This document shows positions 2,736 to 64,000 of a stretch of 64,000 nucleotides of DNA, piece by piece (positions within the stretch are counted from its first letter, which is position 1; every line of letters begins with the position of its first letter). A model generated the notes under the pieces. That model made no database searches and was not told the origin of the DNA. It was given only the letters and a program-made list of their open reading frames with translations. The position numbers and the translations under genes are program-made. The stretch spans positions 319,672,001 to 319,736,000 of the forward strand of contig OZ024742.1 of the NCBI GenBank assembly GCA_964016885.1. The letters run 5' to 3'. This stretch comes from Eledone cirrhosa (lineage: Eukaryota).

Positions 2736-4385
<1,650 letters not shown>

Positions 4386-13668: not shown

Positions 13669-17070
<3,402 letters not shown>

Positions 17071-21059: not shown

Positions 21060-23285
21060 GGTAGTGAATGCCTGGCAACATTCCAGATGCCAGTCACCCA
21101 GTCTCGGTCTCTTCTTGACTCAGGACTGCTGCTCAGTCAAAGAGACGAGCTGCGGAAAGGTCCGTCTGACAAACGGCGACCACATCTGTTCACCGTTCAT
21201 GCAGTATAGCTGGAGATGCCGCAGCCTCAACGCATCATAAGTCACGGCATGCCCAGTCCTCCGCGTAGAGGATGCTGACAGCAGATGGATCACCTCAACA
21301 ACGGAACCTGTCCCTCCACAAGAAGTTGAAGAGGAGCCGTTCCAGCTTGGTGAGGTGCGAACCAAACCTCGAGCAACTTTACCGGTCCGTCCGTCCAGCG
21401 CCCAACAGCCCTGTTGGACGGCATGGACTTGACTCTCCAGGTGCCGAGCTGCAAGCCCACCGACTTTTCCGGGTTAAGTTTCGCTCCCGTCAACCTTTCA
21501 TATTCCTCCAGTAAGGTACCGAGCACCTCGATTTCCGAGGTGTCCGACACCATTACGGTGATGTCATCTTCATAAGCCGATATAGCCTTTCCGCGTCCCG
21601 GTGCGAGCAGGAAGCCCTGCAACACCTCTAGCTTCCCCAGTAAAGGATTGAGAGTCAATACGTACAGAAGGGAGGAGAGAGGGCACCCATTGACTGACTG
21701 ATCGGGAGATCTGAAACGGTTCCGAGACGTGGCCATTACCTTTGACCACCGAGCAGATGCCGCTGTGCATTGCAGCGATCCAGCTTCTAAAGACGGGGTT
21801 GAAGCCAGTCGCCTTGAAGACAGCCTCCTGGTATTGAAGGTCGACCCTATCGAATGCTTTCGATTGATCTAAATTGATCGGAGCCCCACCGAAGCCAGGT
21901 TTACACCCTTCCCTCTCTATGATGTATCGCATGAGGTGGTGGTTGTCGTGTATGGACATGGTCGGGATTGCCCAAGTTTGCGCCTCCTCACCCAATTTCT
22001 CGACGACAAGCGCCAACCTCTTTGCTAACACCTTAGCCAAATTCTTAAACTCTCTATTGAGCAGAGTTATGGCCCTGAAGTTATCTCATGTGTTCCTCTT
22101 ATTCTCGTCTTTCCTTATCAGCGTCACTACGCTCCGGCTCACAGAACTGGGAATACTCCAGTTCTGCTGCCAGTTGCAGTAGAGCGCTTCGAGGAGATCG
22201 GAGAACACACCTGGTATATTTACGAAAAGGTCGTAGGGAAGACCATCCAAACCCGGTGACTTGTGCAGCGTGCATCCGACAAGGGCATCCTGAATTTCGG
22301 CTGAAGTTAGCATTTCGCAGCGCTCAGCCTCGGCCATCGAGAGGTGCGGCAAGACGTCGAGGTAGGGAACTGAAGTCCGCTACCGTCTCTGACACGCCAC
22401 TTGCCCCGAACAGCCAAGAAAAGTGCTGGCGAAAGGCGTCACACATCCGCCTGGAATCGCTCAGCTCGTGTCCGTTTCGGTGCGTCAAAGGCTGAATTGT
22501 CGTTTTGTTACCACGCTGCGCCTCTTCCACGCGGGCCCATCGAACAGCTTTGGTTCCCTCGTTTCTCAGAGCATGCACCTTAGCTCTGACAATGCAGCCT
22601 TCGTGTTTCGCATTGAAGAAAAGGTTTAATGCCATTCTCGCCGCTAGCACGTCAGCTGCAATGCCACTACAAATAACCTCGTCTAACTTAGCTACCAGCT
22701 CCCCTCCTTTCTATTTTTCTCTAACGCTACTTCTTTGCTAAACCCTATCGAAATTATTCTAATCTCTCTTTTGAGAGCGCCACCACCTGTTTCGATGACT
22801 ACCCCTGTCAACTTTTGCTTAACTAAATTGTTGACCCAATCTATGTAAGCCTTACATGCTGGAAACGACATGTTCAGCTTCCAGTAACTAGGTTTTAACC
22901 TACGCATCTTATCTAGGTCGACCATTCAGATCACAATCTTGTGATCTGAATAGGTGTCCGTTTTAAAACGCGGACAGCCTACACTATTTCTATCTATTTT
23001 CCTAATGAAAATCCTGTCTATATACAATCTAGATGTCCCTATGCGGTTGGTCCAGGTCCACACTGGCGCATTAGGGAAATCTAGTCGGTACCTGTCAGAC
23101 AGTTGGAACAGGTTGATCAGGTACTCGAGGCTTCTGCACCCCCCGTTCCTATCAGCTACTCCCATATAATCCCAGCGTGCGTCTAAGTTGCCGTTCCAAT
23201 CCCTCGCTAACAGTAAAGGGCGAGGCGTACCCAGAAAAGCTTCCACGCATCTAAAGAAGTCCGGCCGTCCGGCCCCAGCAGGGGC
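21060..23285 (-). mobile_element. Older frameshifted Tx1/L1-clade LINE ORF2 (APE endonuclease and RT)
   Basis: YSDHKIV, SYWKLN, KSPGLDGLP, DQSKAFDRVD, SAYEDD; colinear with 41252-44083. Confidence 0.92.
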
Positions 23286-23509: not shown

Positions 23510-24884
23510 TATATAACAAAAAACTCAACCCCTATGGAAGAAATAACCTAGACATCAGTGGAGAGCCGACCTGGAGGTGTAACTCCCCTGATAGATCAAC
23601 GTGTCGCCTCAACAACAAATGCCGAGAACGTAACGTGATCTATCAGTGCAACGTGAGGACGGACACCGCCAACAAAGCTTATATAGGATTAACCGCGTGT
23701 GACTTCAAGACCCGGCTCTACCAACACCGACATACTTTCCGAAACCGGTCCGGCGACATGTCACTACACTTTCGGGCCACATTTGGGACCTCCAAGATAA
23801 TAATATAACCTACAATCTCACTTGGAGCTTACTGTCCAGAGTTAACTCTTACACGGGAGGACGCCGTCCGTGTAACTTATGCTCGGAGGAAACATTACAA
23901 ATGCTGTTTTCGAAGGACCAACTCCTAAACAAGAAAGACGAACTGGTAACCGCATGCAAACACGGATTGCGTAGGACTTACCTCGCCCTCAAACCCCATA
24001 ACCACCCGGGTGGGTAGACAAGGGCTGATACACCCCTACTTGCCGAATAAGTTAGGGGAAACCCCAGCTTACTTAGGTAGATATATCTCTTTTCTTTTCT
24101 TTACCTCTTTGTCTTCTTCTTCCCCCTGTCTCATCCTATCACTTCCTTCCACCCCCTATTTTCTTCCTCGTCTGCTTTTCCCCTTTCGCCTACCCCGATG
24201 CAGCCCATCGGGCCTCTGTAGCATCAGTTCCCCCCACCCCTGTAATTTTAAGATAGAATTGGGCGAATACGTTTTACTAACTACTTATAGCAGACGTGTT
24301 AAACCCCTTTAATTTTGTATCAGTTCTGGTACTACTCAATTCCTACAAGTTTTTTCTATTCTCAACTTATTAACCTGTAATTGTAAGATAGCATTGTGAT
24401 TTTTTTTATTCATTTCTCACTATATATATTTTTTTTTCTATTATCTTTTATTGTCTCCTACTCTCATTCGATTTACCTATTCTATAACCTCCCTCCGCCA
24501 CTTCATACACTATCCTTAGAATCTGCTGTATACATATCACTTTCAACGCTTGACCGCTCCACTCACTCCCCTATTGTTCTACAGGCAAGTTCAGCCACCC
24601 CTACCTCCCACCAAATGCCATGATAGACTTATTTGTGTTTACAACAAATTTTAACCAATCCTCTTGACAACTACAATCTTCCCATATAAGGAAGTACCCC
24701 CTTGACAAGTTCGGCTATTTATTCACCAGGCTAAAAATTCTAATTTAGTCCAGAAATAGCCGTCGAAACGGGTTGAGCTCTGCCGTCGGGGTCATACTTT
24801 TTCCTATTTCCCACTCTACTACCCTAAGTATTGAGTACTCTGGTGCGTTATGGTACATCTGGTTCCTTACCACAATTCCTTTCT

Positions 24885-24885
<1 letters not shown>
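23510..24885 (+). mobile_element. Penelope-like element family C: GIY-YIG endonuclease and 3' region, ending in (TA)n
   Basis: CNSPDRSTCRLNNKC...NVIYQC...YIGLTACDFKTRLYQH, then shifted HIWDL...W...CNLC..E...LLNKKDEL...CKH. Confidence 0.85.
24698..24791 (+). ncRNA. Type I hammerhead ribozyme, U3-A8 core variant
   Basis: Stem I CCCC/GGGG; core TTGACAA; stem II G-C plus CGGCTATTT/AAATAGCCG; GAAA; stem III ACGG/CCGT; GUC site (cut after 24787). Confidence 0.75.
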
Positions 24886-24915
<30 letters not shown>

Positions 24916-26121: not shown

Positions 26122-26370
26122 ATAGGGAAAAGGTCAGGACCCGACGGCTGAGCTCCGGCCGTTTCGACAGCTATATCCGAGTTTTTTCCTACTACCCACT
26201 TACTTTTTCCTTATTACCCACTCTACTACCCTAAGTATCGAGTACTCTGGTGCGTTATGGTCCACCTAGTATCTTAGTACACCTTCTTTGTTATATATAT
26301 ATAATGTATATATGTTCGGTTCTAGCTGTCGAAACGGCCGGAGCCCAGCCGTCGGGGTCCTGACTCTTTT

Positions 26371-26375
<5 letters not shown>
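26122..26375. mobile_element. Rearranged family C PLE 3' ends: two inverted half-hammerheads around a terminal fragment
   Basis: TAGCTGTCGAAACGGC-loop-GCCGTCGGG(G)TCC on - at 26122-26181 and on + at 26316-26375; 26220-26270 matches 24812-24860. Confidence 0.75.
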
Positions 26376-26429
<54 letters not shown>

Positions 26430-35641: not shown

Positions 35642-35863
35642 TTATACTAAACTCGTCCTATGGACTGAGTGCTATTACTCTTGGATATTTCCACTCAACA
35701 TTTACTTCAGTATATATATAAGGTATAAACCGAAGTTTTAGCTGTTGTACAGCAAGTATTATACTATTCGATTTGTTTGAGGCAATCACAAATAACTCAA
35801 TGAAGCGAATATATAAAAGTATGCATATATATATATATGCATGAATGCATCTATATTTATCTA

Positions 35864-35920
<57 letters not shown>

Positions 35921-35930
35921 GTATATGTAT

Positions 35931-36657
35931 CTACCGAGGAGCTCTACCGGTTCGTGACAAGATCTACAGGCACGGACGCCCTGGCAGGGATCCTTCCAAG
36001 AGGACGTGTCCAAGATGTGCGCAGGACATTGAAACAGTTCTGCACGCAATTGTACACTGCCCGAGCGTAAGCGACCTGTGGAACTATGCAGAACAACTGC
36101 TGTCGCGTATGGGACAAATACAGTTGACTGCCGAGTCCATAGTAAGGATCAAACCGCCAGCCTCTTTCAAAAACGAAAGAGAGGCGGTTTTCCTCTGTAC
36201 GGTGGCTATGGTGAAAGAAGTTATATGGTGGACGAGGTTGAGAGGACTGAGGACAGATGCCTTTCTCTCCGGACAACAATTGATTCCATTCTTTAAGTAT
36301 CACTTTAGAAGGAGAATCAGGGTGGAGAGAGAGGCACTGCACCCCAGTAAATTTACTGAAAGGTGGGTGAATGAAGCGAAAATGGCCCGAGTGATTGGGC
36401 CTTCTCTGTTTATAAGCCTGTAGGTTGAGGAAGAGAGCAAAAGGAAGAAAGGAGCACTTGCACAACACGCTCCTTGAGTTGAGGGTTGTTCTATCGACGG
36501 GGTATTAAACAACCCATTTGTGGCGCCTCCCCCCTATTGGGGATTTCGATTGTTGAAATTGTTTGTTTTTATATTTTTTACACGACTGTATGTAAAATCC
36601 CCGGCATGTCTTTGTATTGTCCCCTTTCTTGTTGCGCCCTTGTGGCTAATAAAGAAA
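35931..36657 (+). mobile_element. 5'-truncated Tx1 LINE (CCHC region and 3' UTR)
   Basis: YRGALPVRDK...CPRC...HAIVHC; stop 36423; AATAAAGAAA then TCTATCT; (TCTA)n upstream. Confidence 0.92.
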
Positions 36658-39554: not shown

Positions 39555-39930
39555 CCTGGTTGAGGAAAAAGAGGAAGAGAGGAAAGGTGTACTCACTCTT
39601 CGTACTCCTGGAGATGAGGGTTGCACATTTTTTCGGGGGTATGTGTTACCTATATGTAATTGGGGAAAATCGATTAATTTTTAAATTGCATTTGTGATAA
39701 TATTTTACACGTTTTTATAGTATGTAAACTTCCCCCTTTGTATTTGTCCCCTTCTTTTGTGCCCCTGTGGCTAATAAAGAAACATATCTATCTATCTAAA
39801 ACATATCTATCTATCTGTCTATCTATTTGTTTGTTAACATTTTTCTTTTTACACGACTGTGTGTAAAATCCCCGTCACATGTCCTTGTATTGTCCCCTTT
39901 TCTTGTGCGCCCTTGTGGCAAATAAAGAAA
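39555..39930 (+). mobile_element. Two tandem Tx1 3' UTR fragments (39555-39783, 39826-39930)
   Basis: Match 44083-44320 and 36560-36657; each ends AATAAAGAAA plus (TATC)n. Confidence 0.85.
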
Positions 39931-39986
39931 TATATCTATGTATCTATTTATCTATCTATCCATCCATCCATCCATCCATTCATCTA

Positions 39987-40057
<71 letters not shown>

Positions 40058-40059
40058 GT

Positions 40060-40952
40060 CTGGAGACTCCACCGCAACATTCTATAGAGGGCTGGTACGC
40101 AGCAGGTGCGACGACGCCCTCGGAGAAGCTCTAGACATGGAGGAGGACGAACTGGCCAGCCTGTTCGGTAGGACATTCAGCCCGGGACCTATGGACAACT
40201 TCCAGAAGTCCCTGGCCTGGCAGTGTTACCGAGGGGCTTTACCCGTTCGAGAAAGGCTCTACAGACACGGGCGCCCGGGTAGGGACCCCGCCAAAAAGAT
40301 CTGTCCCAGATGCGTGTGCGACGAGGAAACCGTTGCACACGCATTGGTACACTGCTCGGGCGTAGCCGATCTGTGGGGTTATGTCGAACAACTGCTGTCA
40401 AGGGTGGGACCGATCCGGTTGACCACCGAGTCTATTGTAATGATCAAGCCGCCTCCCCCCTTCAAAGATGAAGCAGAGGCGGTGTTTCTGTGCGTAATAG
40501 CCATGGCGAAAGAGGTTGTATGGTGGACGCGTCTGAAAGGACTGAGGTCAGGCACCTTTCTCTCTGGCCAACAACTGGTCCGTTTCTTCCGATATCATTT
40601 CGGAAGAAGGATCAGGATGGAGAGAGAGGTGCTGCACCCCAGTCGTTTTTATGAAAGGTGGGTGAAAGTGGCGAGAATGGCCCGTGTGAATGGAAGGAAT
40701 GGAAGGAACGAGGGAGCACCCCCTCTCTGTGCTCCTGAGGAAAAGGGTTGCACACTTTTTTCGGGGGTGTGTGCGACCCCCCAAGGCGCCTCCTCTCTAT
40801 TGAGGATTTTGTTATAAATTTTATTTTTTGTTATATTTTATTTTATTTTTATATTTTGTTATTGCCTCCTCCTTATTGAGGACGCCTTTTTGTGTAAACT
40901 CCCCCCTTTGTACTTGTCCCACTTTTGATGCCCTGGTGGCAAATAAAAGAAA
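40060..40952 (+). mobile_element. 5'-truncated Tx1 LINE
   Basis: GDSTATFYRGLVRS...CPRC...HC...RWVKVARMARVNG; flanked by (TATC)n. Confidence 0.92.
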
Positions 40953-41006: not shown

Positions 41007-41183
41007 TTGCACATTTTTTTTCGGGGGTATGTGTTACCCATATAAACTGTCTCCCTCTATTGGGGAAAATCGACTAACTTTTTAAATTCCATTTGTGATA
41101 ACATTTTACACGTTTTTATTGTATGTAAACTTCCCCCTTTGTATTTGTCCCCTTCTTTTGTGCCCCTGTGGCTAATAAAGAAA
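41007..41183 (+). mobile_element. Tx1 3' UTR fragment
   Basis: Near-identical to 44146-44320; (TATC)n on both sides. Confidence 0.9.
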
Positions 41184-41185
41184 TA

Positions 41186-41251
<66 letters not shown>

Positions 41252-41252
<1 letters not shown>

Positions 41253-44083
41253 TGATTCTAGTTAGAAATAAGGATAGGGACATGTTAAGCTGTCCACAAA
41301 TGTTCATGGTTGCCTATTCAGATCACAAACTAGTGACCTGCATGGCCAACCTTGATAGAACCCATAGACAAGGACCCGGCTACTGGAAGCTGAACTTGTC
41401 GTTACCGACAAGCAAAGCCTACAGTAGACAGATTAGCACTTTAGTTAAACAGCACTTGACAGGGGCCATTGTCAACAACAGATGGTGGTACTCTCTCAAG
41501 AGGGCAGTTAGATTAGACTCGATAGTTTTTAGTAAAGAATTAGCGTTAGATAGAAATAGAACCGAGAAGGAACTGGTAGATAAAGTAGAAGAGGCAATTA
41601 GAAGTGGCAACGTCGCCAGCGTGCTAGCAACGAGAACGGCCTTGGACCAGTTCTTCGACGCAAAGCACGAGGGCTGCGTTGTCAGAAGCAAAATACGTGC
41701 TCTGGGAAACGAGGGAGCCAAAGCTGTTAGCTGGGCCCGAGTGACGGAGGCAAAAAGTGGCAACAAGTCCACGATTCGGTCTTTGAAGGACCAAAACGGA
41801 CGCGTGATACGTGAGCCGAAGCAGATGTGTGCGGCTTTTCAGCGGCACTTTGTTCGGCTGTTCGGGGGGAGCGGCGCGCCGGGAGAGGCTATGGATTTCG
41901 GTCCATACCTCGACGGCCTACCGCGACTCTCGGACAGCGAGGCGAAGTTCTGCGAAAAGCCGATTTCAGCCACTGAGATAGGGGACGCGCTGAGCCAATG
42001 CGGCAAACGCAAATCTCCAGGTCTCGACGGTCTACCCTACGAATTTTACGTAGCAATGCCGGACTTATTCTCCGGTCTCCTGGAAGCGGTCTACTGCAAC
42101 TGGCAACAGAACGGGAGAATTCCCAGTTCTGTAACCGGGGGCGTGGTCACACTAATCAGGAAGGACGAGAATAAGGGGGATGACATAGGCAACTTCCGGC
42201 CCATAACTCTGCTAAACACAGAGTTACAGATTTTGGCCAAGGTGTTGGCAAAGAGGCTGGCGCTTGTCGTCGAGAACCTAGTGGGAGAAGCGCAGACATG
42301 CGCGATCCCGACCAGGTCCATACACGACAACCTCCACCTCATGCGATACATCATAGAGAGGGTAGGGTGTAAACCCGGCTTCGGTGGGGCCCTGATCAAC
42401 TTGGATCAGTCTAAGGCTTTCGATAGGGTTGACCATCGTTACCTGGATGCGGTGCTCGAGGCGGCAGGCTTCGGACCCGTGTTCAGGGGCTGGATTGCTG
42501 CAATGCACAACAGCAACATCTGCTCAAGGGTCAAGGTGAACGGTTACCTCTCGGAGCCGTTCCATATTACGCGATCCATTCGACAGGGATGCCCTCTCTC
42601 CTCCCTTCTGTACGTACTGACTCTCGAGCCACTACTGCGGAAGCTGGAGCTATTGCAGGGCATCCCTCTGGAACCGGGACTGCGGAAAGCGGCGTCGGCC
42701 TACGCCGACGACGTGACAGTAATGGTGTCGAGCGCCTCGCAAATCGAGGAAGTCGGCACCTTACTAAAGGAATACGAAAGTCTCACAGGAGCGAAGCTGA
42801 ACCGGGACAAGTCCATCGGTTTGCAACTCGGATCGTGGAGAGGCAGACCGATGCCTTCCGATGGCGTCGTCGGACGCTGGACGGAAGGACCGGTAAAGCT
42901 GCTCGGGGTCTGGTTTGGTCCGGACCTCCAGGTGGAGAAGAACTGGAACGAAGTGACGGCCAAGGTGTTTGCACTCACCCAGAAGTGGGCCGAGTGCAAA
43001 CTATCCTTGAAAGGTCGAGCGGAGGTGGCGAACACTTTTATAGCGTCCGCCATCTACTACCGCTTGACCGTCGTGCCTTGTCCAGCCAAAACGCTCGCCA
43101 AAATGGAGCGCGCCCTCTTCCGATTCCTTTGGAAGAGGCGGGCTCCTTTGGTAAGAAGATCCATCTGCTGCCAACACCCTTCTAACGGAGGGCTGGGGAT
43201 GCCGTGGTTGACGATGCGCAAACACGCGCTCAGGCTGCGGCATCTCTACGTATTCCTCACCGGACAACCGGTGTGGGCCCCGTTCGTGAGGCGAGCCTTC
43301 CCACGACTCGTCTCGCTGACCGAGCTGCAGTCCTGGGTCAAGCAGAGACCGAGGAAAATGGGCGACTGGCACATCGAATGTGCTCAGGCGCTCACAGCCC
43401 TCTGGCAGGCGGACCCGGCGATCAGTGGAGACTCCACTTCGTCATTCTATAGAGGGTTGGTCCGCAGCAAGTGCGACGACGCGCTCGGTGAAACTCTAGG
43501 CGTGGAGGAAGATGAACTGGCCAGTCTGTTCGGTAGGACCTTCCGCCCGGGACCGATGGACAACTTCCAAAAGTCCCTGGCCTGGCAGTGCTACCGAGGA
43601 GCTCTACCAGTTCGAGACAAGCTCTACAGACATGGGCGCCCGGGCAGGGACCCTGCAAAAAAGATCTGTCCGAGGTGCGTGCGAGACGAAGAAACCGTCG
43701 CGCACGCATTCATACACTGCCCGGGCGTCACTGACCTGTGGGGCTATGTAGAACGACTATTGTCGCGGGTGGGACCAATCCAGTTGACCACCGAGTCCAT
43801 TGTCATGATCAAACCGCCACCCTCCTTCAAAAACGAAGGAGAGGCGGTTTTCCTTTGTGTGATAGCTATGGCGAAAGAGGTTGTATGGTGGACAAGGTTG
43901 AAAGGGCTGAGGTCAGACACCTTTCTCTCCGGCCAACAACTGATTCTTTTTTTCAAATACCACTTTGGAAGAAGAATCAGGATGGAGAGAGAGGTGCTGT
44001 ACCCCAGCAAGTTTTATGAAAGGTGGGTGAAAGTGGCGAGAATGGCCCGAGTGAATGGGCCTTCTCTCTATATCAGCCTGTAG
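41252..44083 (+). CDS. Tx1 ORF2: APE C-terminus, reverse transcriptase, CCHC finger
   Basis: SDHKLV, WKLN, KSPGLDGLP, FRPITLLN, DQSKAFDRVDH, RQGCPLS, YADD, GGLG, CPRC..ET..H..IHC. Confidence 0.9.
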
Positions 44084-56112: not shown

Positions 56113-59100
56113 TGGGGATTCTTTTCTTTGTTTTTGTGCCTCTCCTTTGTTCTGTCCTACGCCATTTTGTTTCTGTGTGTGTGTTGTGTGCTCAGTCTGC
56201 GCATACGCCACATCCAGGTGTCTGTGTGTGTTTATATTTGTTTATTTATTTGTTTATTTACATGTTACCGGTTGGTTGTTTGTTCTATGTGTGTGTGTGT
56301 TTTCATTTTGTCCTTAATTGTAAATTGTGATGTTGCTGTTCCACTCATATTTTCTATTTAATTTTGGTTGTAATTCTTTTATGTTTATTGCCTCTGTGAT
56401 TTGTCTAAACATTGCGTCTTTTCTGTGTGTAGATTCTATTTTTATTTCTATGTTCTCTAATTTACCCTTGTGTTCTATCTTACCATGTTGGTAGAGTACA
56501 GATGATTCTTTACTATCTTGAAGGTCTCGCCAGTGTTCATTTATCCGTTCCCCTATACTACGAGCTGTCTCACCTATGTACACTATATTTTTGTCTCTAC
56601 ATTGTCCTTCAGTACATCTTATGCTATACTCTACATTTCTAGTTTTACAGTTAATATGGGGGCTTATTTTACAGGTTATACATTTCTTATCTATACAGGG
56701 GGGGGGGTCTTTGGAAAGGGTATGTCTTGCTAATAAGTGTTTTTACGGAGGTACCTGGTCTTTCTACTATCTTAATATTGAGTTTATGTATATCTAGGGC
56801 CCTTCTAAATTTGTAAGCTAATTCACCTCTAGGGGTTGTATCGATGAACATTACACTCTGGTATTTATTGCTATCATACCATGAGTTTATTCTATTAGCC
56901 TTATTCCTAGTTCTTTCTATTCTATTCCAAAATTTGCTCCTATACAAGGGGCAGGTCCCATTTGTGTCATTATTTACCATTTTTTCCCATTTGGTTCTGG
57001 CTCCTCTATACACTCTGATTTTATCTCTGATTGTAACCAGAGAACTGCATACGGTGGATGAAGTGTTGTATGTGTCTCTCTAGTTCTTCGGGGTTGCACA
57101 TGCGGGACACGTTTCTCATCACCCGTACCAAATCCGCAATCAGTATGTTGATTTTGGTATGGTCCGAAACAGCCGAGTTTCGGTGGATCAGATGTTTGGA
57201 AGTCATGGGTTTGGCATAATGGGAATGGAGGATTTGTTTTTTGTTATTAATGGTATCTAACCAGAGCTCTGTGTCTAGTACAGGTAATCGATGGTTGGGG
57301 TGTTTACTTGGGTAGTCTATAGTAACTCTAATACTCTGGTGGTATAAAATTGACGGTATAAATATACAAAATTGACGGTATAAATATGGCCGACACCTCA
57401 TTAACAGATGAGTTCAACAACAACAACAACAACACAAATATATACGGCAACACGGCAATAGATGACGATGAGTTTTCTGTATTACTTCTACCACCGAAAT
57501 TTGCGACATTCAAGAAGGTAAATATGATTAGTTGTCTGTCAGAAATAGAAAAATCATTTACAAAATTACGTTGGAGTCTCAAAAATAAAAACAAAAACAA
57601 AAACAAAAACAAAAGTAACAATATACGCACACACATATACAACACACATCCCAACAACAACAGACACACAGACACAAACAAAAATAACAACAACACACAC
57701 ACCAACAATAATAACATACCCAGAAACAACAACAACAGACACGCAGACACAAACAACAATAACAACACACACAACAATAATAACACACACGGAGACAACA
57801 ACAACAACACACATCAACAACAGCACACATCAACAACAACAACAACACACACATTCAATGCCTCTCACCACCACCACAATCTTAACAAACACACAGACAC
57901 AGAAAACAAGTAATGACAGTAGCACAGAAATCACAGAAATAAGGGAAAGTAATAGGATTAAAAGGAGAAGGGAGACTATGGACAAAGAAAATAACCAAGA
58001 CGAACACACAGACACACAAAATAGAGTAGATAATAACAATGAGCCAGTGGAAAGAGACAGGAGTAATTATGAGAGACATAGAAACAACCATGAGGCTGTT
58101 GGTGGAAATAGAAATAGAAATAGAAACAACACAACTAACAATAACAATAGCACTAGTACACATAAAGCAGCAGCCTGTCACTCTACTTTTTATAATCCCT
58201 CCGATAAGTCGTTCGACCTGCGACGAGTCCACGCCACGACTTTACCATTTAACAAACGTACGCAATTGCCGTCGCAGGTCGATGAACAAACAGAAGCACA
58301 ATTTAGTATAGCTAAATCCGAACTTAGAAATATTATAGAACAGTATAGCAAGAAGCATAATAGAATGGAGGCCCAGCAACTGGGAGAAAAATCTGTAAAT
58401 GGCTTGCGTAAGCTGATGCAGCTCTCACGTAATGGAGAGATAGCATGCTTTCCAACAGACAAGTCTGGCAGAATGTCGGTTGACAGCCTGCCAAACTACA
58501 TCCACGCAATGCAACCCCACACCACTAACACAAAAGAGGTAACACCACAGGAGCATGAGGATAGAGAAAAAGCCCTCAATGCTCATATGGTGATGTGGAC
58601 GAATATAATGCAGCCCAACAAAAGGACTGCCAACAACTTCCAGGCCTGGAACAATGACGTGCCGGCGTTGTATGGGCTTCGAAAAGACCATAAAACGGGC
58701 AGTGACCCTGTCACGGGACCACCAACACGGCCAGTCTGTGGGGCTAACATTGCTAGTAACTACAGACTGTCCTACTTCCTCTCCCTGATCATACGCCCCA
58801 TCATTGAAATGTCCCCAGATGTATGTGACAGCACGGAGGACCTCCTCAGCAGAATCGGCGAGAGTAACCGATCTAGGGACTTAACAAACTGCATAATAGG
58901 TAGTATGAATGTTGTGTCCCTATATCCATCTATTGACGTGGATTTTGCTGTGGAGAAATGCGTAGAAATGATCAGTGAGAGCAATGTTGAGTTCCGTGGG
59001 ATTGATACCAGTGAGCTGGGACTCCTACTTAAACTTACCTATAGTAATAATTACCTAGACACATATGACCTTAGCAACCTGTGCCCTACAAGACCAGCAA

Positions 59101-59640
59101 GAGGCAGACCACCTACCATTACCTCAATGGCCAAGAAAACCCACACAGATAGATGGAACGGGTGGACCAGAGCCATACGGACACCCGAAAACCACGATGA
59201 ACTGAAGAAAATGATTGCACATGCGGTAGGGGCCAGCATAAAACTAACCCTTAAGGAACATATGTTCAAATTTAATGGAAAAACATATGCCCAAGAGGAA
59301 GGAGCAGCCATTGGTGTTAGCATTGCAGGCGACATAGCTAACTTATTCATGGTATGGTGGGACAGTAGACTTAAACTTAAACTCAAAGAACAATTAGAAG
59401 ACCCCTAAACCCTGATAATGTACTCCCGCTACGTTGACGATATAAACATCGTAGTTAAGACACCCCCACTAGAGAACAGTCAGGAACTAGAGAAAAACAT
59501 AATGGAAAGCATCCAGCAAATAGCTAACTCCATCCACCAGAGTATTAGAGTTACTATAGACTACCCAAGTAAACACCCCAACCATCGATTACCTGTACTA
59601 GACACAGAGCTCTGGTTAGATACCATTAATAACAAAAAAC

Positions 59641-61997: not shown

Positions 61998-62133
61998 TAC
62001 TACCCAAAGTATCGAGTACTCTGGTGCGTTATGGTCCACTTGGTTCCTTACCACACTTCCTTCGTTCTCTACTACCCTAACTATTGAATACTCTGGTCCA
62101 TCTGGTTCCTTACCACACCTCTTTCGTTATGTG

Positions 62134-62196
<63 letters not shown>

Positions 62197-63742
62197 TAAA
62201 ATAACAGATTAAAGTTTAAGCAAAGAATCGCTGCTTTCACCCTTAACGGGATCTTCTGAAACTAACAAAGTCAATATGTGAACGCAGAAGTGAATATTTC
62301 AAAAACGTTGCAGCCGGAGGAAGACAGGAAGACGATACTTTGGTTCGTGGAAACGTTCCCTGGCAAAGAACGGGAAAAAAACGAATATAATACGTCATTA
62401 ATAGGAGCGGTGAAAAACAATTATGCGCAAAGACAGAACCACGTTTATGGTATAAAAGAGGTCGTAGACTAATGTTCTCTTAGGTGGTTCATAGAGACGT
62501 TCTCTGGCATTGAACGGAAAAAACGAAGATAATACGTCATATGTGGAGCGTGGAGAACAATTGCACGCAAAGACAAAACCACGTAAATGGTATAGCTGAA
62601 GTCGTAGACTAAAATTCTAACTAGGAAACCGAATACCATTACTTATTTGCACAGGTAAGTGTATATTACCTGTATGTTTTGTGAAGGTACGTATATTTTC
62701 TCGTACGTATATTGAATGTATATGTTATGGCGTATAATTTTTTATATATTCTGGTACATATGGTTTGGTTATGTGTATACGGGAGTTTTGCGTCTGTGTG
62801 AGTATGCAGGTTCGTACGTTGTAGGGTGTGTGTATATGTGTACTTCATGTTTTGGCTGACTTACGTCTCCGAACATTTGTGTATTTACATGTAGGTATGT
62901 GTGTGTGCTTGTTTTATACGTATTTATTTATTTATATACGTTTATTTAATTATTTATTTATTTGTATACACGCATACACACACACACATATTTATATGTG
63001 CGTGGTTTTGTATACCCATGGCAAGTGTTTTCGCGTATGCTTGTGTATGTACGTATTTGCATGCGTGTATGTATTTATTTAATTTCTATTACCTCTGTAT
63101 TGTATTTTATTTACTTTATTCTTAACTCTGAAGCGGAGATTCATTCGGTTTGCTAGTTAGAATTTTAGTCTACGACTTCAGCTATACCATTTACGTGGTT
63201 TTGTCTTTGCGTGCAATTGTTCTCCACGCTCCACATATGACGTATTATCTTCGTTTTTTCCGTTCAATGCCAGAGAACGTCTCTATGAACCACCTAAGAG
63301 AACATTAGTCTACGACCTCTTTTATACCATAAACGTGGTTCTGTCTTTGCGCGTAATTGTTTTTCACCGCTCCTATTAATGACGTATTATATTCGTTTTT
63401 TTCCCGTTCTTTGCCAGGGAACGTTTCCACGAACCAAAGTATCGTCTTCCTGTCTTCCTCCGGCTGCAGCGTTTTTTGAAATATCCACTTCTGCGTTTAC
63501 AGATTGACTTTGTTAGTTTCAGAAGATCCCGTTAAGGGTGAAAGCAGCGATTCTTTGCTTAAACTTTAATCTGTTATTTTAATAAATATATATATATATT
63601 TATATACAAATAACGAAAGAGGTGTGGTAAGGAACCAGATGGACCAGAGTATTCAATAGTTAGGGTAGTAGAGAACGAAGGAAGTGTGGTAAGGAACCAG
63701 GTGGACCATAACGCACCAGAGTACTCGATACTTTGGGTAGTA
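61998..63742. repeat. Inverted duplication 61998-62634 / 63143-63742; each arm has two tandem units of about 140 bp
   Basis: Near-identical reverse complements around a TG-rich spacer of about 510 bp. Confidence 0.95.
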
Positions 63743-64000
63743 GAATGGGTAATAGGAAAAGGGTCAGGACCCCGACGGCAGAGCTCAAGCCGTTTCGACG
63801 GCTATTTCTGAACTAAATTAAATTTTTAGCGTGGTAATGATATAGCCGAACTTTTCAAGGGGTAATTCCATATATGGGCATGCGATAATCAGGCATTTCT
63901 GAAGGTTGTAGTTGTCAAAAGGAGTGGTCGAAGTTTCTTGTAAACACAGTTAAATCTTTCAAGGCGATGGGTAAAGTGGGGGTGGCTGAACTAGCCTGTA
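63605..64000 (-). mobile_element. Penelope-like family C 3' end; continues beyond the window
   Basis: Reverse complement homologous to 24580-24885. Confidence 0.85.
63769..63863 (-). ncRNA. Type I hammerhead ribozyme, U3-A8 core variant
   Basis: ACCCC TTGAAAA G TT CGGCTAT...ATAGCCG T C GAAA CGGC TTGAGCTCT GCCG TC GGGGT. Confidence 0.8.

Follow-up and report, generated by a model that had tools for sequence, protein, structure and literature searches.

The window, a 64,000-nucleotide stretch of the Eledone cirrhosa genome, raises the question of whether a hammerhead ribozyme can spread with an altered pair at core positions 3 and 8. An earlier note had described two type I hammerheads in this DNA with U3-A8 as their core pair. 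Both were present as described, with three stems around the core and stem I at the open end, and their cores differ at position 7 only. Copy 1 (24698..24791, plus strand; subfamily B) was identified from its sequence and a covariance model. Its stem I pairs CCCC at 24698-24701 with GGGG at 24788-24791, and its core contains U3 (24702), C7 (24706), A8 (24707) and GAAA (24765-24768); the palindrome of loop III lies at 24775-24780, and the predicted cut falls after C17 (24787). Five Cs precede U3 in its subfamily. Copy 2 (63769..63863, minus strand; subfamily A) carries U3 at 63858, A7 and A8 at 63853, with the predicted cut after C17 at 63774, and its minimum free energy fold displays all three stems.

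Two structural details had to be revised. The full stem III attributed to both copies is an intact 5-bp helix in copy 2, but in copy 1 the C found at position 15.5 in most sister copies is replaced by G (24772), which produces a G·G mismatch and thereby weakens the stem. The stretch of about 35 nt described as the loop of stem II is not a plain loop, as it includes a predicted upper hairpin. Two half copies reported at 26122-26375 also exist, but they lack the entire 5' core, so that they cannot act as ribozymes alone. One (26122..26180, minus strand) runs from the 3' strand of stem II to the short end and forms the left arm of an inverted pair whose right arm (26201..26292, plus strand) consists of tail only; the other (26318..26376, plus strand) lies within (TA)n and carries one point change in its palindrome. 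Both half copies at 26122-26376 are 5'-truncated and of the C/E type, with a stem II 3' strand and loop III matching those older subfamilies.

A covariance model of 35 family copies scored copy 1 at 134.7 bits and copy 2 at 142.1 bits, values that arise partly by construction because copy 2 itself and almost identical sisters of copy 1 went into the model; the half copies scored 46 and 36.5 bits. An Rfam scan of the window returned no hammerhead at E<=1, only microsatellite look-alikes, and a scan of four C3-G8 loci at E<=10 found a hammerhead in 0/4, which the long stem II may explain. Folding energies of five copies were not significantly different from those of shuffled sequences (z -0.14 to -1.78). 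With Rfam silent and folding energies not above shuffles, the case rests on the family.

The host element

The attribution of these motifs to a Penelope family was borne out by a GIY-YIG remnant upstream of copy 1 and by the order hammerhead, tail, ATG in tandem copies. The remnant (23515..24017, plus strand; stop at 24015-24017) is the 5'-truncated end of the element's ORF, encoding a CxCx5C-type linker and a GIY-YIG endonuclease with one frameshift, and it shares 83% identity over 75 aa with a 710-aa open frame at a sister locus (L316). The 3' untranslated part, or pLTR body (24018..24697, plus strand), is 90-95% shared with sister copies and separates the stop at 24017 from copy 1 at 24698 by about 680 nt. 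Copy 1 is followed by the short 3' end (~+22 nt) and a tail of ~80 nt that stops at (TA)n (24792..24886, plus strand). The 3' UTR of copy 2 (63864..64000, minus strand) continues past the window, where a GIY-YIG remnant lies ~810 nt upstream (L001), and on its other side a doubled tail (63597..63768, minus strand) stops at (TA)n. Another doubled tail, without a hammerhead (61998..62140, plus strand), matches the tail region of copy 2 at 98.7% in inverted orientation. Together with the flanks that follow them, the two doubled tails form inverted near-copies ~1.5 kb apart (61998-62250 and about 63490-63744). Between GIY-YIG stop and motif, the 3' UTR measures about 1050-1250 nt in subfamilies E and D and about 620-780 nt in A and B (L311-L317 versus L121).

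At the sister locus, a single open frame encodes a reverse transcriptase (RT) followed by GIY-YIG, with the motifs YRDD, VIYQC...YIG, DKT, LRWR, CxCx5C, CxxC and CxH. Atlas neighbours carried HTH_animal and GIY-YIG in 26-100% of members; Pfam scans of the ORF pieces and of this frame gave nothing useful. Tandem copies follow the order hammerhead, tail, 5' UTR and ATG, C17 lying about 190-195 nt before the ATG, and an insertion typically consists of two truncated copies in inverted orientation within (TA)n. The RT and GIY-YIG ORF, tandem pLTR, tail and inverted truncated copies are the features of an EN+ Penelope element. The DKT motif, CxCx5C linker, CxxC and CxH motifs and (TA)n targets are those of the Hydra clade, with RWR in place of RWK. 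By these motifs the element, which is present in high copy number, fits the Hydra clade of Penelope-like elements; published Hydra proteins were compared with it by eye. We dropped the Neptune label, which needs a CX2-5CxxC linker, since the linker here is CxCx5C. A non-LTR retrozyme was also rejected, because it needs short non-coding tandem repeats and the copies here are dispersed or in inverted pairs joined to ORF remnants.

Members of the Hydra clade described by Craig et al. 2021 (PMC8557442), including Hydra-1_Obim, share the C-terminal GIY-YIG, DKT, an RWK-like motif, CxCx5C, CxxC and CxH, (TA)n targets, a tail and inverted truncated copies. Unlike the element studied here, the Hydra rows of File S2 of that work are all C3-G8 (26/26, found with a descriptor requiring C3-G8), with a stem III of 3-4 bp and a loop of 1-3 nt. 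Hydra-1_Obim has another hammerhead than the present element and a protein that appears by eye related but distinct, so that the present element is another family. Several copies are adjoined by other Penelope-like families at 35-45% protein identity (L122:1708-2875, L125:1-1396, L129:1-1680, L132:1-600).

Four states of the 3-8 pair

We counted exact matches to core-plus-flank patterns over the 3.0 Gb genome, with the reversed patterns as control. The U3-A8 core gave at least 2368 matches and the mismatched C3·A8 core 1512, each against 0 in the reversed control, so the motif does not arise by chance. Cores with G8 gave 55 matches (45 U3·G8 and 10 C3-G8; reversed control, 0). These fixed-flank counts miss the five-C subfamily of copy 1 and underestimate old, decayed subfamilies. 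When the core was left free, 5031 matches were obtained against 63 in the control; of the first 100 matches listed, 80 were family members (48 U3-A8, 25 C3·A8, 3 U3·G8 and 4 with other mutations) and 20 belonged to an unrelated repeat. That abundant repeat fits the flank pattern (L193, L194, L201, L202, L210, L215, L216), and no hammerhead features were seen in it. A short canonical hammerhead pattern ending in the stem III of the window copies gave 44 matches, which on inspection were truncated copies beside a chance CTGANGA and were discarded as a family.

From 247 whole-motif copies, a non-random sample that includes copies chosen for G8, 242 were placed in 12 subfamilies by nearest seed and 5 remained unplaced. 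Subfamily E (n=27; 9.0% median divergence) contained 10 C3-G8, 12 U3·G8, 2 C3·A8 and 3 other copies, and U3·G8 was found in 4/4 copies of E2 and 8/8 of A2. The U3-A8 state characterised C (22/28), A (30/35), B0 (15/15) and B (56/58); the frequencies in A and B show that it is a subfamily state and not independent decay of the two window copies. C3·A8 occurred in 5/11 copies of B2, 3/6 of D0 and 16/30 of D, and U3-A8 again in the youngest subfamilies, D1 (8/9) and D2 (9/11), at 0.8-1.5% divergence. A Watson-Crick 3-8 pair is accordingly found in both window copies (U-A) and in old E copies (C-G), and not in B2, D0 and D (C·A) or in A2 and E2 (U·G). Eight of the ten exact C3-G8 copies sit in B2/D backgrounds, at a rate not above background A-to-G change.

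The C3·A8 state was present on both arms of single inverted pairs (L318, L319, L321). Read-derived contigs, compared after exclusion of low-depth pieces from two other organisms, showed C and U about equally at position 3, and G did not appear at position 8 in the list of differences of at least 5%. We therefore rejected an assembly artefact as the source of C3·A8, since these contigs, which may share the same sample, carry both states.

These results show that the four 3-8 states are states of subfamilies within one lineage. They do not support the description of U3-A8 as a rare compensatory swap: U3-A8 has already been published for Penelope hammerheads, and all four pyrimidine-purine combinations were amplified. 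With four states in amplified subfamilies, including 1512 copies of C3·A8, positions 3 and 8 do not behave as a compensatory pair.

Constraint outside the 3-8 pair

The rest of the motif is conserved. U4, G5, A6, A9, G12, A13, A14, the A15.1-U16.1 pair and C17 each have one majority state in 12/12 subfamilies, the exceptions being at flanking positions (11.1 in E, and 1.1 in E2, which has four copies). The large stem III with a palindromic loop proposed at the outset was confirmed: the stem has 5 bp, 94.7% paired, and its 9-nt loop consists of 2 nt, the 6-nt palindrome and 1 nt, with GAGCUC unchanged in 12/12 subfamilies and only its flanks varying. Over the whole family alignment, 90.6% of cells are paired. 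The check for stem covariation that the earlier note had suggested came out positive for stem II, where three pairs are altered on both sides between the old E/C and the remaining subfamilies, a single old/young split counted repeatedly, but stems I and III and the palindrome showed no two-sided change in the family alignment.

Among 11 subfamily majorities (E2 left out), 3/48 model-defined columns vary versus 59/86 others. Between B2 and D, the C3·A8 subfamilies, 18 changes were fixed, 0 of them in the 48 core, stem and palindrome columns (p=0.0003); the remaining columns are rich in A and T and may have a higher mutation rate, which would inflate this contrast. Core, stems and palindrome are thus fixed across subfamilies. 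In part of E (L242, L244, L247, L249, L253, L255), G10.1·U11.1 is combined with an A-U pair at the stem II base, a change that would disrupt the predicted off pairing described below, and E copies of this kind have C3 in 9/13 cases.

Order of change

The subfamilies form the ladder E/C, A2, A, B0/B, B2, D0, D, D1 and D2. Terminal branches of the proteins measured 0.19-0.28 in four E copies versus 0.024-0.045 in five D-group copies, and these longer branches indicate that E is oldest. Taken with the published Hydra rows, the copy ages suggest that the 3-8 pair passed through C-G, U·G, U-A, C·A and U-A. Two trees with distant Penelope outgroups placed the root on the young side and not at E (UFBoot 58-85), and a G8 root and an A8 root are equally parsimonious for E, C, A2 and A. 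Because the outgroup roots disagree and parsimony is equal, we treat this order of change as inferred.

Two 3' ends beyond the cut site

Of 681 copies spanning the cut site, sampled by targeted searches, 294 have their 3' end between +20 and +24, and another 292 reach at least +100, where the query stops. Two discrete 3' ends therefore lie past the cut site, and because these copies read through it, their templates must have been uncut or re-joined. This pattern agrees with another Penelope element, for which RT initiation at two internal positions and a hammerhead assisted by protein have been reported (PMC11167929).

Among the copies collected, truncations peak 40-50 nt before C17. Read-derived contigs cover the 3' half of the motif at roughly 10-30x the depth of the 5' core (L212:1540-1675), a contrast that partly reflects subfamily divergence. 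The majority of genomic copies may be half-ribozymes of 60-130 nt. A 10-nt palindrome directly upstream of stem I (63871-63880, minus strand) is kept except in B0, B and B2, which have one change, and some truncated copies start at it. The short 3' end, the putative first RT start, is also where a predicted outer extension of stem I (alignment columns 5-10 and 118-124) closes.

Predicted folding of monomers and dimers

The RNAalifold consensus of 35 copies was not the hammerhead but a fold in which both the cut site and the palindrome are paired to the 5' core strand. With U3 in place, the hammerhead fold is predicted to cost less with A8 than with G8 in 36/36 copies (0.1-5.5 kcal/mol). An A-to-G change at position 8 is predicted to cost 1.2 kcal/mol or more in 11/13 copies, and the same change at position 7 0.4 kcal/mol or less in 11/13. 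In predicted monomers, stem III forms with P 0.72-0.98 in the U3-A8 subfamilies A, B, B0 and C and with P 0.01-0.09 in D, B2 and A2. Dimers joined through stem III are predicted to be more stable in 13/13 cases, by 6.5-16.5 kcal/mol over two monomers at standard state, and a core-free dimer lies within 0.6 kcal/mol of the best dimer in 11/13. These models disregard tertiary contacts, protein and concentration; they predict a competing inactive fold that G8 would strengthen and dimerisation would remove.

A proposed slow self-cutter and its alternatives

We lean towards the reading that the motif is a slow self-cutter, assisted by dimerisation or protein, in the terminal repeat of the Penelope element, in which the 3-8 pair drifts and the rest of the fold stays fixed. 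In this model, a tandem transcript would be cut after GUC to give an ORF-bearing RNA beginning about 190 nt before AUG. On RNA that is uncut or has been re-joined, reverse transcription would start internally at about +22 and about +105, and these two starts could yield inverted pairs in which one arm has the short end and the other the tail. Since templates must span the cut site, fast cleavage would be disfavoured and a weak 3·8 pair tolerated. Within one molecule, the predicted off fold would set the 5' core strand against the palindrome and cut site; G8 would stabilise this fold, A8 would destabilise it, and a partner palindrome would abolish it. A8 may have been kept after it arose because it weakens the off fold.

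A bolder version of this reading is doubtful, though worth stating: a natural hammerhead without a Watson-Crick 3-8 pair that is detuned and self-inhibited, is switched on only when two RNAs pair through the 6-nt palindrome, and moved by single steps through C-G, U·G, U-A, C·A and U-A under selection. If true, thousands of datable copies would remain for each step. Two published results count against the slow self-cutter. A deep mutational scan (PMC9901934) reported that only a G-C swap rescued the 3-8 pair and that other single and double changes in the region gave low activity; by those values C3·A8, U3·G8 and even U3-A8 could be nearly dead. In another Penelope element, insertion in vitro was not impaired in hammerhead-dead mutants (PMC11167929).

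One alternative we consider unlikely, though it deserves serious weight: catalysis may be lost or optional, the fold serving as a platform for protein binding or dimerisation near the RT starts while the 3-8 pair drifts unchecked. The spread of 1512 C3·A8 copies and the copies that span the cut site agree with this scaffold, as do the published findings that hammerhead-dead mutants of another element still inserted in vitro, with RNA ends not found at its cut site (PMC11167929), and that Naiad elements spread without canonical hammerheads (PMC8557442). A mere platform, however, leaves open why the unpaired U4, G5, A6, A9, G12-A14 and C17 hold the same majority in 12/12 subfamilies, and why subfamily states keep a pyrimidine at 3 and a purine at 8.

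A further reading, an efficient monomeric U3-A8 ribozyme whose C3·A8 and U3·G8 subfamilies are crippled passengers mobilised in trans, seems to us improbable. U3-A8 is indeed the commonest state (48/80 family members among the first 100 matches listed), the one that marks D1 and D2, the youngest subfamilies, and the one with the lowest predicted folding cost in most copies; natural U3-A8 covariation is also known, with in vitro activity reported in PMC3088659 on the strength of earlier work cited there. Passengers, however, should hardly cover the successive subfamilies B2, D0 and D, with long ORF remnants and unchanged constraint, and C3·A8 lies on the ladder to D1 and D2. It would be very surprising if the state were instead an editing switch, in which A-to-I change at A8 makes C3·A8 a C-I pair and turns the ribozyme on. 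A·C mismatches are favoured editing sites, octopus-like cephalopods edit their RNA heavily, and the predicted off fold puts A8 opposite C inside a duplex. Against this, G8 among young C3 copies stands at 8/1520 (0.5%), not above the 0.8% A-to-G background, so edited RNAs are not copied back, and an A8 edit would weaken U3-A8 copies.

Relation to known hammerheads

Among the closest known systems are the Cercyon elements of Schistosoma (Cervera and De la Pena 2014, PMC4209133), with about 1,300 U3-A8 matches published for Schistosoma. Their type I hammerheads lie in the pLTR, combine a long stem II with a short stem I, a palindromic region at helix III and a U3-A8 core, and occur mostly as truncated singles and inverted pairs. 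Unlike Cercyon as described there, the present element has a 5-bp stem III, a 9-nt loop, an upper hairpin in stem II and four Y3·R8 states; C3·A8 or U3·G8 families are not reported in the text of that paper. Natural U3-A8 hammerheads are also in print elsewhere (PMC3088659). Monomer-active fungal and protist Penelope hammerheads with a large helix III (PMC4209133) share the stable stem III but lack the endonuclease and are non-animal, and the text on them describes neither a palindromic loop nor 3-8 drift. We rejected the minimal, dimer-only animal Penelope hammerhead as a match, because its helix III is absent or 1-2 bp, against 5 bp here; known animal Penelope hammerheads have a smaller stem III. 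The PAc Poseidon element of Anolis (Frangieh et al. 2024, PMC11167929) resembles this one in having a hammerhead upstream of two internal RT starts that define the tail, AT-rich targets and extension of both strands. It differs in a canonical core that overlaps the start codon and a tail of 30-40 nt; here the predicted cut lies about 190 nt before AUG and the tail is about 80 nt.

U3-A8 alone is thus ordinary, and the novelty is a 3-8 pair that is not fixed across sister subfamilies. The retroviral dimer-initiation hairpin also has a 9-nt loop of 2 nt, a 6-nt palindrome and 1 nt; loop III is alike in layout only, its flanking bases differ, and homology is not claimed. In the literature searched, with incomplete coverage of papers on Penelope variants, no natural C3·A8 family or four-state lineage was found. 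Lunse et al. 2016/17 reportedly treated Penelope hammerhead variants and may describe 3-8 mismatches.

The 3-8 pair positions the general acid, and this lineage offers a ready series: one ribozyme, four versions of that pair (C-G, U·G, U-A and C·A), and a successful subfamily for every version. Amplified unpaired intermediates are one route by which a covarying core pair could arise. Searches restricted to C-G or U-A cores overlook whole subfamilies. Whether Penelope hammerheads need to cut at all is treated as an open question in PMC11167929 and PMC8557442.

Other features of the window

A 619-aa Penelope-like RT frame with a DKS motif (57549-59408, plus strand) was set aside as another family on its differing motifs; an endonuclease-like frame follows it. 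A 984-aa non-LTR RT frame (41129-44083, plus strand), which we take to be L1/Tx1-like, has fragments of the same family at 39867-40817, 35845-36423 and 21290-22085. The window also contains microsatellites and C2H2 zinc-finger arrays, which together suggest an octopus-like host; the arrays lie at 3282-4274 and 14611-15090 (plus strand).
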